From: Escherichia coli
GTDB taxonomy: Bacteria > Pseudomonadota > Gammaproteobacteria > Enterobacterales > Enterobacteriaceae
Length of the DNA: 64,000 nt
Assembly: GCF_044324785.1 (NCBI RefSeq)
Contig: NZ_CP172127.1
Strand: one strand, 5' to 3'
Position 1 is the first letter of the stretch. The number at the start of each line of letters is the position of its first letter. The translations under genes and the position numbers were made by a program. Positions 4,451 to 62,747 of the stretch are shown in pieces. A model generated the notes under the pieces. That model had not been told where the DNA came from, made no database searches, and saw only the letters and a list, made by a program, of their open reading frames with translations.

Positions 4451-5326
4451 ATGGACTTTTTTACATTATTTACGCCGGACGGGGCCATGGTGGAAACAAG
4501 CGTGGTATGTATCGTTATCGCGTTAATGTTTCTTTATACCTTTGTGGGGATATGCGCGGGATTTGGCGGTGGTTTAACCACTATGCCGCTCGTCACGTTA
4601 ATGCTCCCCGTAAAAATGGCAACTCCGCTCTCGGTGATTGTCGGCACCGCAACCGCCTTGTACGCCACCTGGCTGTCACGTAAAGAAACGGATTGGCGAT
4701 CGGCAATGGTACTGATTATTTTCTCGTTTCTGGGAATACCCGTCGGTTTATATGCGCTGTCGTATTTACCCGACCATTTTATGAAAGTGGGCTTAGGCGG
4801 ATTCCTTATCCTTTACTCGTTTTACAGCATGTTTATTCCTCGCCTGCCGATTTATGACCGTAACTGGATCGCCGCACCTATCGGCGCAGTAGCTGGTGCA
4901 TTAGGTGCGGCGTTCTCAACCAACGGACCGCCGATGGTTATCTACGGTATGCTGCGTAACTTAGGCCCGGCGGCATTTCGCGGCACTTTGAACGCTTTCT
5001 TCACCGCAAACAACATCGCGGTGATCGGCGGGCTGGCAACCAGCGGAATTTTGACTGTCTCTATCTTTAAACTGGTGTTGTTTTGTATTCCCACCATGAT
5101 CCTCGGTTCACTGGTTGGACAATATGTGCATAAACGCATTTCGGTCAAAGTGTTCCGTGTGATGGTCTTTTTATTGCTGATTGCCTCCGGTTCTATGTTG
5201 ATAAAAGGCGCGCTGGGAATTCCCGCCGCTGCCGCACTTCTGCCTCCGTTTACCTTGTTAGTTATACTGCAACTGGCATTCGGTAAAAAAGTGGCGGCAA
5301 TCCGCCGGGCTGAAGAAAGTAAATAA
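4451..5326 (+). CDS. TSUP / TauE-SafE family (DUF81) polytopic membrane permease; candidate sulfonate or sulfite exporter
   Basis: 291-aa ORF with SD AGGA 6 nt upstream of ATG; multiple hydrophobic helices and the family's Gly-rich motif (GFGGGLTTMPL); function is inferred from family and context only. Confidence 0.8.
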   Translation: MDFFTLFTPDGAMVETSVVCIVIALMFLYTFVGICAGFGGGLTTMPLVTLMLPVKMATPLSVIVGTATALYATWLSRKETDWRSAMVLIIFSFLGIPVGLYALSYLPDHFMKVGLGGFLILYSFYSMFIPRLPIYDRNWIAAPIGAVAGALGAAFSTNGPPMVIYGMLRNLGPAAFRGTLNAFFTANNIAVIGGLATSGILTVSIFKLVLFCIPTMILGSLVGQYVHKRISVKVFRVMVFLLLIASGSMLIKGALGIPAAAALLPPFTLLVILQLAFGKKVAAIRRAEESK

Positions 5327-7513: not shown

Positions 7514-8899
7514 ATGAGTCACATCACAACGGAAGATCCGGCTACTTTACGTCTGCCCTTTAAAGAGAAACTCTCTTACGGTATCGGCGATCTGGCCTCT
7601 AACATCCTGCTGGATATCGGCACGCTTTATCTTTTGAAGTTTTATACCGACGTTCTGGGGCTGCCCGGCACCTATGGCGGCATTATCTTTTTGATTTCAA
7701 AGTTCTTTACCGCCTTTACCGATATGGGTACCGGCATTATGTTGGATTCCCGACGCAAGATCGGTCCAAAAGGCAAATTCCGCCCTTTTATTCTGTATGC
7801 ATCATTCCCGGTCACCCTGTTGGCGATCGCCAACTTTATCGGCACACCGTTTGATGTCACCGGTAAAACGGTGATGGCCACCATCCTGTTTATGCTTTAC
7901 GGACTGTTTTTCAGCATGATGAACTGCTCCTACGGCGCAATGGTCCCCGCTATTACTAAAAACCCCAACGAACGTGCATCGCTGGCAGCATGGCGTCAGG
8001 GTGGCGCTACATTGGGCCTGCTGCTGTGTACGGTGGGATTCGTGCCGGTTATGAATCTTATCGAAGGTAATCAGCAACTTGGCTATATCTTCGCCGCCAC
8101 GCTGTTTTCACTGTTCGGCCTGCTGTTTATGTGGATCTGCTACTCGGGCGTGAAAGAGCGTTATGTCGAAACCCAACCTGCAAATCCGGCGCAAAAGCCT
8201 GGCCTGCTGCAGTCTTTCCGCGCGATTGCTGGTAACCGCCCACTATTCATTCTGTGTATTGCCAACCTCTGCACTTTAGGGGCGTTTAACGTCAAGCTCG
8301 CCATTCAGGTCTATTACACGCAGTACGTGCTTAACGATCCCATCCTGTTGTCGTATATGGGATTTTTCAGCATGGGCTGTATTTTCATCGGCGTGTTCCT
8401 GATGCCTGGTGCAGTCAGACGTTTTGGTAAGAAGAAGGTCTATATCGGCGGCCTGCTGATTTGGGTGCTGGGCGATCTGCTCAACTATTTCTTTGGCGGC
8501 GGCTCGGTCAGCTTTGTGGCGTTCTCCTGCCTGGCGTTCTTCGGCTCAGCGTTTGTTAACAGCCTGAACTGGGCGCTGGTTTCTGACACCGTCGAGTACG
8601 GCGAGTGGCGCACCGGTGTGCGTTCGGAAGGTACGGTCTACACCGGCTTCACTTTCTTTCGCAAAGTGTCTCAGGCGCTGGCTGGTTTCTTCCCCGGCTG
8701 GATGCTGACGCAAATCGGCTATGTGCCAAACGTGGCGCAGGCTGACCATACCATCGAAGGTTTACGCCAGCTGATCTTCATCTACCCAAGCGCACTGGCG
8801 GTAGTCACCATTGTGGCGATGGGTTGCTTCTACAGTCTGAACGAGAAAATGTACGTCCGCATTGTTGAAGAAATAGAAGCCCGTAAACGCACGGCATAA
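7514..8899 (+). CDS. yihP: GPH-family sugar:cation symporter
   Basis: ORF track starts at 7481; likely start ATG 7514 (MSHITTEDP...); 12-TM transporter, paralogous to yihO. Confidence 0.85.
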   Translation: MSHITTEDPATLRLPFKEKLSYGIGDLASNILLDIGTLYLLKFYTDVLGLPGTYGGIIFLISKFFTAFTDMGTGIMLDSRRKIGPKGKFRPFILYASFPVTLLAIANFIGTPFDVTGKTVMATILFMLYGLFFSMMNCSYGAMVPAITKNPNERASLAAWRQGGATLGLLLCTVGFVPVMNLIEGNQQLGYIFAATLFSLFGLLFMWICYSGVKERYVETQPANPAQKPGLLQSFRAIAGNRPLFILCIANLCTLGAFNVKLAIQVYYTQYVLNDPILLSYMGFFSMGCIFIGVFLMPGAVRRFGKKKVYIGGLLIWVLGDLLNYFFGGGSVSFVAFSCLAFFGSAFVNSLNWALVSDTVEYGEWRTGVRSEGTVYTGFTFFRKVSQALAGFFPGWMLTQIGYVPNVAQADHTIEGLRQLIFIYPSALAVVTIVAMGCFYSLNEKMYVRIVEEIEARKRTA

Positions 8900-10202
8900 A
8901 TAATAAACAACGCCCTGCGGGGCGTTATAAGGAGTGATTATGTCTGACCATAATCCACTGACATTAAGACTGAATCTGCGGGAAAAAATCGCCTATGGCA
9001 TGGGCGACGTCGGTTCGAATTTAATGCTTAGCATCGGCACTCTGTATCTCCTCAAATTTTATACCGATGAATTAGGGATGCCTGCTTACTATGGCGGGAT
9101 TATCTTTCTGGTAGCGAAGTTTTTTACCGCGTTTACCGATATGCTCACCGGATTTTTACTCGACTCGCGGAAAAATATTGGGCCTAAAGGCAAATTTCGT
9201 CCCTTTATTTTATATGCAGCGGTTCCGGCGGCGTTAATTGCAACGCTCCAGTTTATCGCCACCACTTTTAGTTTGCCGGTTAAAACGACGATTGCCACCG
9301 CGCTGTTTATGATGTTTGGACTTTCATACAGTCTGATGAACTGCTCGTATGGCGCGATGATCCCGGCAATTACCAAAAACCCCAATGAGCGCGCGCAGCT
9401 TGCGGCTTACCGCCAGGGTGGTGCAACCATAGGGCTATTGATTTGTACCGTGGCGTTTATTCCGTTGCAGTCGCTTTTTTCTGACTCCACCGTCGGTTAT
9501 GCCTGTGCGGCACTTATGTTCTCCATTGGCGGCTTTATTTTTATGATGCTGTGCTACAGAGGCGTCAAAGAGCATTATGTGGACACAACGCCAACCGGAC
9601 ATAAAGCCAGTATTCTCAAATCATTTTGCGCGATATTTCGGAATCCGCCATTGCTGGTTTTGTGCATTGCTAACCTGTGTACCCTGGCGGCATTTAATAT
9701 CAAACTGGCGATTCAGGTCTATTACACCCAGTATGTGCTGAATGATATTAACTTATTGTCGTGGATGGGATTCTTCAGTATGGGATGCATCCTCATCGGC
9801 GTATTGCTGGTGCCATTAAGCGTAAAATGTTTTGGTAAAAAACAGGTTTATTTAGCTGGCATGGTGCTGTGGGCGGTGGGGGATATCCTGAATTATTTCT
9901 GGGGAAGTAACTCTTTCACTTTCGTCATGTTCTCTTGTATCGCCTTTTTTGGCACGGCCTTTGTAAACAGCCTGAACTGGGCACTGGTGCCAGATACCGT
10001 AGATTACGGTGAATGGAAAACCGGTATTCGTGCCGAAGGTTCTGTTTATACCGGTTATACCTTCTTTCGTAAAATTTCTGCCGCACTTGCTGGCTTCTTG
10101 CCAGGCATTATGCTGACGCAAATCGGTTATATTCCCAACATCGCGCAGGTGATGCTGCCAACTTACTGATTTAGTGTATGATGGTGTTTTTGAGGTGCTC
10201 CA

Positions 10203-10478
10203 GTGGCTTCTGTTTCTATCAGCTGTCCCTCCTGTTCAGCTACTGACGGGGTGGTGCGTAACGGCAAAAGCACCGCCGGACATCAGCGCTATCTCTGCTC
10301 TCACTGCCGTAAAACATGGCAACTGCAGTTCACTTACACCGCTTCTCAACCCGGTACGCACCAGAAAATCATTGATATGGCCATGAATGGCGTTGGATGC
10401 CGGGCAACTGCCCGCATTATGGGCGTTGGCCTCAACACGATTTTACGTCACTTAAAAAACTCAGGCCGCAGTCGGTAA
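10203..10478 (+). CDS. insA: IS1 InsA
   Basis: 91-aa [27 protein letters not shown]..., recognised. Confidence 0.95.
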
Positions 10479-10900
10479 CCTCGCGCATACAGCCGGGCAG
10501 TGACGTCATCGTCTGCGCGGAAATGGACGAACAGTGGGGCTATGTCGGGGCTAAATCGCGCCAGCGCTGGCTGTTTTACGCGTATGACAGTCTCCGGAAG
10601 ACGGTTGTTGCGCACGTATTCGGTGAACGCACTATGGCGACGCTGGGGCGTCTTATGAGCCTGCTGTCACCCTTTGACGTGGTGATATGGATGACGGATG
10701 GCTGGCCGCTGTATGAATCCCGCCTGAAGGGAAAGCTGCACGTAATCAGCAAGCGATATACGCAGCGAATTGAGCGGCATAACCTGAATCTGAGGCAGCA
10801 CCTGGCACGGCTGGGACGGAAGTCGCTGTCGTTTTCAAAATCGGTGGAGCTGCATGACAAAGTCATCGGGCATTATCTGAACATAAAACACTATCAATAA
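10397..10900 (+). CDS. insB: IS1 InsB (made as InsAB' transposase by -1 frameshift at the A6C motif near 10453..10463)
   Basis: ORF in -1 frame overlapping insA; TTAAAAAACTC slippery motif present. Confidence 0.9.
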
Positions 10901-11186
10901 GTTGGAGTCATTACCCATCGCGCAAAGTGATGCGACATTACAGGGTTTGCGTCAGCTCATTTTTATCTGGCCTTGTGCACTGGCAATTATTGCTGCATTG
11001 ACGATGGGATTCTTTTACACACTCAATGAAAAACGGTTTGCGTTGATTATTGAGGAAATCAACCAACGCAAAAATAAAGAGATGGCGACAGAAGAAAAAA
11101 CGGCTTCCGTAACGTTATAAATGTCAATAGCCGCTATTTCCATCCTGGTGGGTGGCGGCCTCCCTACGTTTAAAAATGGACTTATT

Positions 11187-11879
11187 ATGAAAAATATTAA
11201 TGCAATAATTTTATTATCTTCTCTGACCTCTGCCTCAGTATTCGCTGGCGCATACGTCGAAAACAGGGAGGCATATAATCTCGCCTCCGATCAGGGCGAG
11301 GTTATGCTACGTGTGGGTTATAACTTCGATATGGGCGCGGGTATTATGTTAACCAATACCTACACCTTTCAGCGAGAAGATGAACTAAAACATGGATATA
11401 ACGAAATTGAAGGTTGGTATCCTTTATTTAAACCAACCGATAAATTAACCATCCAGCCCGGTGGCTTAATTAATGACAAGAGTATCGGTTCGGGTGGTGC
11501 CGTTTATCTGGATGTTAACTACAAATTTACTCCGTGGTTTAACCTGACGGTGCGTAATCGCTATAACCATAATAATTACAGCTCTACAGATTTGAACGGC
11601 GAATTGGATAATAACGACACCTATGAAGTTGGCACCTACTGGAACTTTAAAATAACAGAAAAATTTTCCTATACATTTGAACCACATTACTTCATGCGAG
11701 TGAATGACTTTAATAGTAGCAACGGGAAAGATCATCATTGGGAAATCACTAACACCTTCCGTTACCGTATTAATGAACACTGGCTTCCTTATTTCGAATT
11801 GCGCTGGTTAGACCGCAACGTCGAACCGTACCACCGCGAGCAAAACCAGATCCGTATCGGGACGAAGTATTTCTTCTGA
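11187..11879 (+). CDS. ompL: outer membrane porin OmpL
   Basis: ORF track starts at 11121; likely start ATG 11187 (MKNINAIILLSSLTSASVFA signal peptide), C-terminal aromatic residue typical of OM beta-barrels. Confidence 0.85.
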   Translation: MKNINAIILLSSLTSASVFAGAYVENREAYNLASDQGEVMLRVGYNFDMGAGIMLTNTYTFQREDELKHGYNEIEGWYPLFKPTDKLTIQPGGLINDKSIGSGGAVYLDVNYKFTPWFNLTVRNRYNHNNYSSTDLNGELDNNDTYEVGTYWNFKITEKFSYTFEPHYFMRVNDFNSSNGKDHHWEITNTFRYRINEHWLPYFELRWLDRNVEPYHREQNQIRIGTKYFF

Positions 11880-17074: not shown

Positions 17075-17225
17075 AACTTTGCCTCAGGCATTAGAAATAG
17101 CGCGTTATTGTACACGGATTAATCGCACTACAAAACAGGATCACAAACATCCTCCGCAAACAAGTATTGCAGAGTCCCTTTGTGATCGCTTTCACGGAGC
17201 ATAAAAAGGGTTATCCAAAGGTCAT

Positions 17226-17274
17226 TGCACCAATATGGTGCTTAATGTTTCCATTGAAGCACTATATTGGTGCA
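17226..17274 (+). promoter_or_regulatory. two NtrC (NRI) enhancer sites upstream of glnA (TGCACCAATATGGTGC and GCACTATATTGGTGCA)
   Basis: Inverted-repeat TGCACC-N-GGTGCA-type sites read directly; established glnA regulation. Confidence 0.6.
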
Positions 17275-23984: not shown

Positions 23985-24052
23985 AATGGTTCGTCTTTTA
24001 GCCGTTTTATTCAGTATAGATTTGCGGCGGAATCTAACAGAAAGCAAGCAAA

Positions 24053-24295
24053 GAAAAAAGGCGACAGATTACTCTGTCGCCTTTTTTCCTGACTCATAAC
24101 CCTTAACGGGTCTTACAATCCTTGCAGGCCGCCAACACACCCTGTTTTTCCATTAGCCGGAACAATCCGTGTTGATTCCATTTCCGTTTAATTACGTCTC
24201 CGGACGTTTGTCTTCCTGACAATCCTCTGTCTTCGCCTCCTGGCGCTCCTGACCCTCATCCTGAGTCATTGTTCCTGTTAGCGTCCTCGCTCTAT
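24053..24295 (-). ncRNA. csrC: CsrC small RNA (CsrA-sequestering), multiple GGA motifs, intrinsic terminator at its 3' end
   Basis: Reverse complement reads ATAGAGCGAGGACGCTAACAGGAACAATGACTCAGGATGAGGGTCAGGAGCGCCAGGAGG... ending in GGCGACAG..CTGTCGCC + U-run; matches CsrC as I recall it in the yihI–engB intergenic region. Confidence 0.8.
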
Positions 24296-25323: not shown

Positions 25324-25432
25324 TAAAAAACGCCCCAGTCATTACTGACTGGGGCGGCTAAAATATTCAGCCAAATCCGATTACGTGAAGTAAAAGGTCT
25401 GAAAGATAGAACATCTTACCTCTGTACCCTAC
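25324..25432 (-). ncRNA. spf: Spot 42 small RNA
   Basis: Reverse complement reads GTAGGGTACAGAGGTAAGATGTTCTATCTTTCAGACCTTTTACTTCACGTAATCGGATTTGGCTGAATATTTTAGCCGCCCCAGTCAGTAATGACTGGGGCGTTTTTTA. Confidence 0.9.
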
Positions 25433-25579
25433 GCGACTAACTTTACTCTTTTTTGTTCAGTTCAGAAAGCACTTTTTGTAATTTTTTTTCAGTTGTTGCA
25501 TAGGAATTTCTAATAGCCATCACAAAACGTGACAGCTTATGTTGCTTACTTACGAAAAAAGGGCATGTTCAGGTGAATC

Positions 25580-34452: not shown

Positions 34453-35208
<756 letters not shown>

Positions 35209-35312
35209 ATCAGCATACTTGTCCTTAGCCTTCTGCAGTGACAGCTGGTAGTACAGCGTGCTTCTGGCCAGCCCTGCAGCCTTTAACAGGTCAGACTGGC
35301 AGTGTCCGCACC

Positions 35313-35843
35313 TCAGGCTCCGGATGACTTTCGTTTTTTCTCCAGCTCCTGGCGCTTTTTTTCCAGGAGATGCTCCTGCATGGCTTTCAGATATGCATTT
35401 TCTGCGCGAAGATAACGCAGCTCATTCTTCATCTCTTCCGGCGTCATGTTTGCCTCGTTTTCATGGGTATCATCAGAACGGGTCATGCTTTTCTCCTTCC
35501 TGCGCCTGATAAAGGCCTCATTACCAGATTTGCGGTAGCCTTTTATCCAGTTTTTAACCGTGTTGTGGCTGGGAATGTTAAACCGGGCAGCTACCCGGGG
35601 TAGAGACTCAGAATGCCCGAGAGCATAAAGAACCACGCAAAGTTTATCTTCAGGAGAATAGCTACGCTTGTGTCTGCAATCCAGTGCCCGAGGACCGTGA
35701 AGAAGAAAAAGATTAATCCAGTGTGAGAGGCTGGTGTGAGAAAGTTGAAAGAGTTTTGCCGTAGAAATGATGCCTGCATGACCGGCCAGGTAATGATTTA
35801 CAGCGGCAAGTTTTACTTCAAATGAATGTTTCATAAACTGCAC
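35313..35843 (-). CDS. IS3-family transposase OrfA (HTH, leucine zipper)
   Basis: 176-aa ORF inside the IS; 3' end carries the AAAAAAG frameshift heptamer. Confidence 0.85.
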   Translation of the reverse strand: MQFMKHSFEVKLAAVNHYLAGHAGIISTAKLFQLSHTSLSHWINLFLLHGPRALDCRHKRSYSPEDKLCVVLYALGHSESLPRVAARFNIPSHNTVKNWIKGYRKSGNEAFIRRRKEKSMTRSDDTHENEANMTPEEMKNELRYLRAENAYLKAMQEHLLEKKRQELEKKRKSSGA

Positions 35844-35945: not shown

Positions 35946-36082
35946 TTCTGCTAAATTTGATGCCTGGCAGTTTATGGCGGGCGTCCTGCCCGCCACCCTC
36001 CGGGCCGTTGCTTCGCAACGTTCAAATCCGCTCCCGGCGGATTTGTCCTGGTTGGGAGAGCGTTCACCGACAAACAACAGAT

Positions 36083-36124
36083 AAAACAAAAGGCCCAGTC
36101 TTTCGACTGAGCCTTTTGTTTTAT
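36083..36124 (-). terminator. rrn operon terminator T1-like hairpin immediately 3' of 5S rRNA
   Basis: AAGGCTCAGTCGAAAGACTGGGCCTT hairpin with flanking A/U runs. Confidence 0.75.
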
Positions 36125-36127
36125 TTG

Positions 36128-36247
36128 ATGCCTGGCAGTTCCCTACTCTCGCATGGGGAGACCCCACACTACCATCGGCGCTACGGCGTTTCACTTCTGA
36201 GTTCGGCATGGGGTCAGGTGGGACCACCGCGCTACGGCCGCCAGGCA
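36128..36247 (-). rRNA. rrfA: 5S ribosomal RNA
   Basis: Exact 120-nt match by eye to E. coli 5S (reverse complement). Confidence 0.97.
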
Positions 36248-61598: not shown

Positions 61599-62747
61599 AT
61601 GAGTGATATTATTTACCTGAACATAACCGGAGAACAACAAGGATGTATTTCCTCTCGTTGTGGAACGAGCGCATCAATAGGTAATCGCTGGCAGATTGGC
61701 CATGAAGATGAAATCTTCGCGTTCTCGCTCTCTAATAGTATTACGAATACAGGCAAAGGGTCACAATTGCATGGCCTTAGTTTCTGTAAATTGATTGACA
61801 AAAGCTCCCCGTTACTTATTAACGCTATTAACAATAACGAGCAGTTGTTCATGGAGTTTGACTTCTATCGGATCAATAGATTTGGTCGATGGGAGAAATA
61901 TTACAACATTCAACTTCGCGGCGCGCTCTTATCAGCAATCAATCACCTGTTTACTGAGAACAATCTGGATACAGAAACCATCACTGTCAGTTATGAATAT
62001 ATACTCTCCAGGCATCTGATTGCTAATACTGAATTTAGTTATTTGGCATTTCCCGATAACTACAACCGTCTGTTTATACCACGGCCAAAAACTAAAGATG
62101 ATAATGGCCTCAAAACACTCAATAGTAAAGCGGTTGGCAGACTGCTTGCTGCTGGCGGCATATACAATGGGAATATCGAAGGATTCAGGGAAACAGCAAA
62201 CAAGTTGGGAGGAGATGCACCTGCTGGTTACGATCAAGTTATGGATAACAAAGGGTTACTCATCGCTGGTGCTTCAATAGTTGCTGGAGTTGTTCTGGGA
62301 AGAATGAGATTCCCTGATTTGGAATCACTTGAGCATTTCGGAGCCAGAGGAGCAGTATCAGGAAGACCATTTAATCCCGACCTTGCCGGTGGTCCAATAG
62401 AAAATCTGACGACAGATGGCGTAACAATCAACAGGGAAGGTATCGCTATTGTTGAAAAACACATAGCCAGATTTGGTCATGACCCTGTAAATGAAGTGAT
62501 GATCAATAGACTGAAAGACATTGAGAAAGGAAAAATCCCCCCAGAACAAGTAGATCTTAACTTCTATACTCATGAATGTCGGGAATATCAGCGTTACTGT
62601 AATCTTGGTTGGGAAACAGGACAACCTGATGGTGACGCAGGCTATGCACTCTGGAATCATACGCATACTGCTACTCTAGAAGATTATAAACTTAAGGGAG
62701 AACTTAATGACTTATACCACCAGGATGCACTTGACTATGATAACTGA
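61599..62747 (+). CDS. Hcp (T6SS TssD) N-terminal domain fused to an unassigned ~215-aa C-terminal domain; candidate 'extended Hcp' T6SS effector
   Basis: 382-aa ORF in an AT-rich island; residues 1–~165 show Hcp-family signatures (GLSFCKLIDKSSPLL, FDFYRINRFGRWEKYYNIQLRGALLSAIN, ETITVSYEYI); C-terminal domain is my inference from architecture. Confidence 0.8.
   Translation: MSDIIYLNITGEQQGCISSRCGTSASIGNRWQIGHEDEIFAFSLSNSITNTGKGSQLHGLSFCKLIDKSSPLLINAINNNEQLFMEFDFYRINRFGRWEKYYNIQLRGALLSAINHLFTENNLDTETITVSYEYILSRHLIANTEFSYLAFPDNYNRLFIPRPKTKDDNGLKTLNSKAVGRLLAAGGIYNGNIEGFRETANKLGGDAPAGYDQVMDNKGLLIAGASIVAGVVLGRMRFPDLESLEHFGARGAVSGRPFNPDLAGGPIENLTTDGVTINREGIAIVEKHIARFGHDPVNEVMINRLKDIEKGKIPPEQVDLNFYTHECREYQRYCNLGWETGQPDGDAGYALWNHTHTATLEDYKLKGELNDLYHQDALDYDN

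Follow-up and report, generated by a model that had tools for sequence, protein, structure and literature searches.

The closest described counterpart of the insertion sequence analyzed here is IS1A of Escherichia coli K-12, which shares with it the length of 768 bp, the terminal inverted repeats (IRs), the insA/insB' layout, the -1 frameshift at an A6C motif and the 9-bp target duplication. IS1 elements are relaxed in their choice of target, with a preference for AT-rich DNA, and their duplications are mostly 9 bp long (PMC10359306). For yihO, the gene interrupted by the element, the passages of PMC6278857 that cite Denger et al. 2014 describe a K-12 deletion mutant that does not grow on sulfoquinovose under either aerobic or fermentative conditions. 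The substrates of YihO and the neighboring YihP are only proposed, and the transport role of YihO was derived from genetics, not biochemistry (PMC6278857). In K-12, sulfoquinovose induces ompL along with yihO and yihP (PMC12608037). A short form of the yih cassette (yihTUVW), present in E. coli Nissle 1917 and many pathogenic strains, is devoid of ompL and yihOPQRS (PMC12608037).

The window, i.e. the entire 64-kb stretch of E. coli DNA under analysis, differs from this short form in carrying the long cassette, complete apart from a single IS1 insertion and extended by a TauE/SafE gene. The genes are arranged in the order yihU-yihT-yihS-yihR-TauE/SafE-yihQ-yihP-yihO::IS1-ompL, followed by yihN, yihM and yihL in opposite orientation, and all of the listed genes except yihO are full-length and free of internal stops. 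This order is collinear with that of E. coli N3 (NZ_CP031609.1) as well as with K-12, in the latter case with the exception of the TauE gene. Both the short cassette and the allele in the window would represent natural routes to the loss of sulfoquinovose uptake, with the short form giving up the early steps of the pathway as well. The features of the interrupted locus are the following:

8940-10147, plus strand: 5' part of yihO with native codons 1-403 and the left target copy, collinear with and identical to N3 yihO
10139-10147: left copy of the target-site duplication, CATCGCGCA, 9 bp, single-copy in the N3 empty site
10148-10915, plus strand: IS1 (IS1A-type), 768 bp, with insA co-directional with yihO
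10148-10170, plus strand: IRL, left terminal inverted repeat, encoding VMLPTY and the TGA (10167-10169) that ends YihO
10155-10182, plus strand: promoter-like CTGCCA-16-TATGAT in IRL, from the promoter scan
10203-10478, plus strand: insA, 91 aa, GTG start, identical to K-12 InsA
10397-10900, plus strand: insB frame, catalytic part of the InsAB' transposase, matching NF033558
10452-10460, plus strand: TTAAAAAAC, motif of the programmed -1 frameshift
10893-10915, minus strand: IRR, right terminal inverted repeat
10916-10924: right copy of the target-site duplication, CATCGCGCA, 9 bp
10925-11120, plus strand: orphan 3' remnant of yihO, codons 404-467 (TM12, cytoplasmic tail, stop), identical to N3
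11187-11879, plus strand: ompL, intact, 100% identical to N3 ompL, matching NF007434 (porin OmpL) with 472 bits

An earlier note on this DNA had described a complete 768-bp IS1 with intact insA and insB and a frameshift motif, flanked by a perfect 9-bp duplication, and both parts of this description held. The element spans 10148-10915, the -1 shift at TTAAAAAAC (10452) yields an InsAB' of 232 aa, and upon re-inspection the copies of CATCGCGCA at 10139-10147 and 10916-10924 were identical, with identity stopping at 9 bp and no third copy of this 9-mer on the plus strand of the window. The two ends, IRL GGTGATGCTGCCAACTTACTGAT and the reverse complement of IRR GGTAATGACTCCAACTTATTGAT, match at 18 of 23 positions, and the window contains the IRL 23-mer once (0 expected from shuffled sequences) and a single IS1 copy. 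The InsB part matched the IS1 family transposase model NF033558 with 143.7 bits (cut-off 100), InsA alone covered positions 1-81 of the same model (91.3 bits), and InsA also matched the zinc-binding domain NF050000 (41 bits, cut-off 28). The assignment to the IS1 family is thus based on the length of about 768 bp, imperfect IRs of about 23 bp starting with GGT, the insA/insB' arrangement with the A6C frameshift, the match to the transposase model and a target duplication in the 8-9 bp range that is single-copy in the unoccupied site.

Compared to K-12 IS1A, 766 of 768 bases are identical, while the chromosomal location is new. The two differences, at element positions 262 and 687, are both silent and leave InsA and the fusion protein InsAB' unchanged; the nominal insB ORF exhibits one change relative to K-12 (S5C), which precedes the frameshift site and does not form part of InsAB'. 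IS1 copies in records of phage P1, SfIV and GER2 are 99.3-99.7% identical. Judging from the intact ends and the unchanged proteins, the element would be competent for transposition. Its target has a G+C content of 67%, which is unusual for an element with a preference for AT-rich sites, yet inside the documented range (PMC10359306).

The unoccupied form of the locus is found in N3, which contains one copy of CATCGCGCA and reads CCCAACATCGCGCAAAGTGATGCG across the site. Mapped onto N3, the left flank of the insertion extends to position 791334 and the right one begins at 791326, so that the two overlap by 9 bp. Window and N3 are collinear over the whole 64 kb at 99.1-99.3% identity, with the IS1 as the sole large difference, and when the element and one repeat are removed the restored yihO shows no differences from N3 yihO over 1404 bases. 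Since the N3 flanks are collinear and overlap by exactly 9 bp, the insertion is a simple one that was not accompanied by an adjacent deletion or inversion.

The junction between IS1 and yihO was absent from all of the 5,426 complete E. coli genomes searched, the nearest relative included, and the exact 44-nt left junction had no match among GTDB species-representative genomes. A 20-nt junction pattern fitting either IS1 orientation gave nine matches in JGI metagenomes, all of them due to chance, as the contigs concerned were unrelated and resembled neither yihO nor IS1. The truncated 409-aa YihO is encoded by only two public contigs, while the restored 467-aa protein, which is a common E. coli allele, has exact matches on 241 contigs. 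Taken together, the 0/1404 differences, the absence from 5,426 genomes and the ratio of two to 241 contigs identify the insertion as evolutionarily very recent. The recent origin suggested earlier is therefore confirmed, though not on the ground given for it, because a perfect 9-bp repeat is weak evidence of age: 18 bp cannot resolve time.

In the window, YihO retains residues 1-403 (ATG at 8940) up to IPNIAQ and continues with VMLPTY to the TGA at 10167-10169, for a total of 409 aa. The replacement of about 65 residues by six IS-encoded ones, as previously described, was correct with respect to the VMLPTY tail, while the loss amounts to 64 residues (404-467). The restored 467-aa protein matched TIGR00792 (GPH:cation symporter) over residues 16-451 with 527.9 bits (cut-off 231) and aligned along its length with MelB (4M64, E = 3e-40); the match to the GPH model and the position between yihP and ompL identify the gene as a member of the YihO family. 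In the MelB alignment, the break at NIAQ/SDATLQG lies within the loop that leads to the final helix. Both the segment of YihO with the highest hydrophobicity in the hydropathy analysis (414-432) and the region of the last MelB helix are located downstream of IS1, in the lost part, which bears out the proposed loss of the final transmembrane helix. No single frame encodes the 12-helix fold, as the frame ends at residue 403 plus the six IS-encoded residues, and because TM12 (414-432) lies downstream of IS1, yihO is a pseudogene here and probably no longer a functional member of its family. The truncated product would comprise 11 helices, with its end in the periplasmic loop that precedes TM12.

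MFS transporters without their last helix are expected to be unstable or inactive, and LacY and MelB lose stability or activity once a truncation from the C-terminus extends into the last helix; the literature searched contained no truncation experiment on YihO or MelB. The loss of TM12 together with the phenotype of the K-12 deletion mutant suggests that the function of the importer is likely lost, and YihO-dependent growth on sulfoquinovose is predicted to be absent despite intact genes for the enzymes of the pathway.

Downstream of the insertion, ompL starts 271 bp from the end of IS1. Rho-dependent polarity has classically been described for IS1 insertions. Since translation stops 22 nt into IS1 and only the short insA is well translated before ompL is reached, we infer a polar effect, and reduced expression of ompL through Rho-dependent polarity is plausible.

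The window is not the only case in which the transporter or porin gene of a long yih cassette is broken. Additional alleles were drawn from the protein cluster of truncated YihO and checked on DNA, a cluster that is biased toward products of nearly full length. The yihO of GCA_036033365.1 (JAYXHL010000077.1) shows 53 differences from that of the window over 1190 bases, and at the end of its contig AACATCGCGCA is directly followed by GGTAATGACT; the latter corresponds to the other IS1 end, joined at the same base as in the window (10147/10148) in opposite orientation, with 10 nt of it visible. The target CATCGCGCA was apparently used twice, as an IS1 end of opposite orientation is joined to a divergent allele at the same base, and this insertion is independent of the one in the window. 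GCA_001286445.1 carries an IS1 in reverse orientation 27 bp upstream of the window site. A nonsense allele, W418* (TGG to TGA, corresponding to window 10966-10968), which removes most of TM12, was checked in three E. coli assemblies and is widespread, with 84 index blocks of the collection listing it. Downstream of the window site, IS1 is inserted after yihO nt 1233 in GN03590 (25 bp from the window site, a 93% identical variant) and IS1X2 after nt 1293 in PSS-08-1 (85 bp from the window site); the IS1 variants of these two strains are 93-94% identical to the element in the window. Complete genomes also contain IS1 at about nt 558 and nt 792 of yihO, at the 3' end of yihO in A27, where ompL, yihN and part of yihM are gone, and within ompL in two separate genome groups. 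In all, IS1 disruptions of yihO or ompL were found in GN03590, PSS-08-1, FAHZZU6724, fS25a, A27, the AR_0019 group and HE_50. Because position, IS1 variant or orientation, and yihO alleles differ, these lesions represent independent events.

Several other readings of the locus have to be weighed. IS1 is a multi-copy element and a frequent cause of misassembly, and a copy could have been misplaced into yihO during assembly. The duplication of a target present only once in the empty site, however, is the mark of true transposition, and the identical left junction is present over 4237 of 4237 bases in the Logan assembly contig ERR13187251, which was derived from a separate read set and reported for three samples. 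As this independent contig carries the junction, we rule out an artefact, which is hardly credible in any case. A phenotypically silent insertion, with either an active 11-helix YihO or import of sulfoquinovose by YihP or another transporter, would be in line with the intact yihP (7514-8899), a close relative from the same family (TIGR00792, 536 bits), with the additional TauE/SafE transporter that is present in this cassette but not in K-12, and with the proposed status of the YihO and YihP substrates. Other natural alleles devoid of TM12 also persist, among them W418* and the further IS1 insertions. On the other hand, an entire helix of the C-terminal six-helix bundle is gone, truncations of LacY or MelB into the last helix cost stability or activity, and in K-12 yihP does not rescue the yihO deletion on sulfoquinovose (PMC6278857). 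A silent insertion is unlikely on this evidence.

The insertion could also have activated or rewired ompL through a promoter carried by IS1 or formed at its border, and altered expression by way of an IS-borne promoter had indeed been proposed. The only promoter-like site on the plus strand from the insertion to ompL is the one at 10155-10182 in IRL, which we take to be the IS1 promoter reading toward ompL; the IRL promoter of IS1 is weak and repressed by InsA. Between IRR and ompL the plus strand yielded no promoter-like site in the scan, which was consensus-based and could be escaped by weak or non-sigma-70 promoters. IS1 is known to form fusion promoters where the flank provides a -10 hexamer at the right distance (PMC9330008), and a -35-like TTGGAG is present in IRR, but the hexamers that follow 16-18 nt on (AAAGTG, AAGTGA and AGTGAT) match TATAAT at only one, one and three of six positions, so that the right border of IS1 was rejected as the site of a fusion promoter. 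Since a usable -10 at proper spacing is missing, an IS-created ompL promoter, as suggested earlier, finds no support, and we regard activation of ompL as very unlikely. A different question is whether the site was hit at random or is a preferred IS1 target, or whether loss of the YihO C-terminus is under selection. The fact that the IS1 end in the divergent yihO of GCA_036033365.1 abuts precisely this base (the probability that two among the collected events coincide at one base by chance is about 0.02-0.03) and the further insertions 27 bp upstream as well as 25 and 85 bp downstream argue for a non-random event, and the native yihO sequence to the right of the target, AGTGATGC, matches seven of the first eight bases of the IS1 end. 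However, the sampled protein cluster is biased toward C-terminal truncations, GCA_036033365.1 shows just 10 nt of the IS, the insertions in complete genomes are scattered over yihO (about nt 558, 792, 1233 and 1293) and ompL, and IS1 is not strict in its target choice. About 4% of random positions have a 7/8 match within 12 bp, and the resemblance was rejected as a cause of site choice because it fell short of significance (p 0.04-0.12 according to the flank permitted). We consider a non-random insertion possible, though doubtful. The more specific proposal that the base after CATCGCGCA and the approximately 110 bp around it form an IS1 hot spot, maybe guided by AGTGATGC, or that removal of the C-terminus is repeatedly selected, appears slightly more doubtful still; if true, hot spot or selection would lead independent lineages to converge on the same yihO lesion. 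Either version is compatible with a simple IS1 insertion and does not replace it.

The explanation we favor with considerable confidence is a very recent insertion of an IS1A-type element at yihO codon 403/404 in an N3-like lineage, with YihO function likely lost and polarity on ompL probable. A competent element of this type would have entered yihO by ordinary IS1 transposition in an E. coli lineage near N3, duplicating the 9-bp target CATCGCGCA with no further rearrangement. The 467-aa, 12-TM permease has thereby become a 409-aa product that likely fails to fold or function. With translation ending 22 nt into the element, ompL would be preceded by some 1 kb of RNA with little translation, and polarity would lower the ompL transcription that starts from the CsqR-controlled promoters further upstream. 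As such, the event follows the textbook pattern of IS1, with a copy close to canonical IS1A, and its biology is ordinary and already known.

The value of yihO::IS1 is chiefly local, and it raises no new mechanistic question. It provides a clean, datable case of pseudogene formation driven by IS1. A strain that is predicted to be unable to grow on the plant sulfosugar sulfoquinovose with all of its catabolic enzymes intact also calls for caution in inferring metabolic capacity from gene presence. The recurrent IS1 insertions and the nonsense allele in yihO add to the evidence from long and short cassettes for frequent loss of sulfoquinovose utilization in E. coli.

The TauE/SafE-family gene of the cassette (291 aa, window 4451-5326, plus strand; Pfam PF01925, E = 5e-35) is located between yihR and yihQ, where K-12 has a 198-bp spacer with no TauE/SafE gene. 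It was detected in 1,287 of the 5,426 complete E. coli genomes, O157:H7 among them, and is not mentioned by that name in the 2025 comparison of long and short yih cassettes (PMC12608037). The encoded protein is a plausible candidate for an exporter of sulfonate or DHPS.

Identity between window and N3 was distributed as a mosaic, with TauE, yihQ, yihP, yihO and ompL at 100% and lower values for yihR (96.2%), glnG (96.9%), fadA (96.3%) and ubiD (96.9%), which suggests recombination between lineages and not uniform divergence. A transposase gene of the IS3 family resembling IS1397 was present at about 34486-35834 (minus strand), with mobB on one side and the 5S end of an rRNA operon on the other, and was 99.6% identical to an N3 copy at the same place. 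Being common to window and N3, this insertion predates that of IS1. An origin of the window from Shigella, whose genomes abound in IS1, was considered and rejected as unsupported in view of the single IS1 copy in 64 kb, the full collinearity with N3, which extends to the IS1397, and the E. coli labels of the exactly matching proteins. The search for inverted repeats at this gene returned only a hairpin at 36066-36139.

Within the IS1 itself, the silent C to T change at position 687 (window 10834) creates a longer T run after a weak hairpin (10808-10825) that was flagged as terminator-like by the scan. This hairpin is probably meaningless and was discounted because its stem comprises only 5 bp with a loop of 8 nt. 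At the right border, native yihO sequence at window 10925-10941, AAGTGATGCGACATTAC, resembles the left end of IS1, GGTGATGCTGCCAACTTAC. The Rfam scan of positions 1-36000 returned only ES222 (17156-17263), CsrC (24042-24295) and Spot 42 (25324-25442), all on the minus strand, presumably at their usual E. coli locations, none near the insertion and all unrelated to it.

Three genes that are frameshifted or start-shifted in the N3 annotation are intact in the window, namely yihU (366-1262), polA (28355 region, minus strand, around codon 5) and a tssD-like gene (61599-62747). A frameshift of polA in the window was considered and rejected, as the 1-base deletion belongs to N3; the window polA starts with MVQIPQNP, which we take to be the start of K-12 polA as well.
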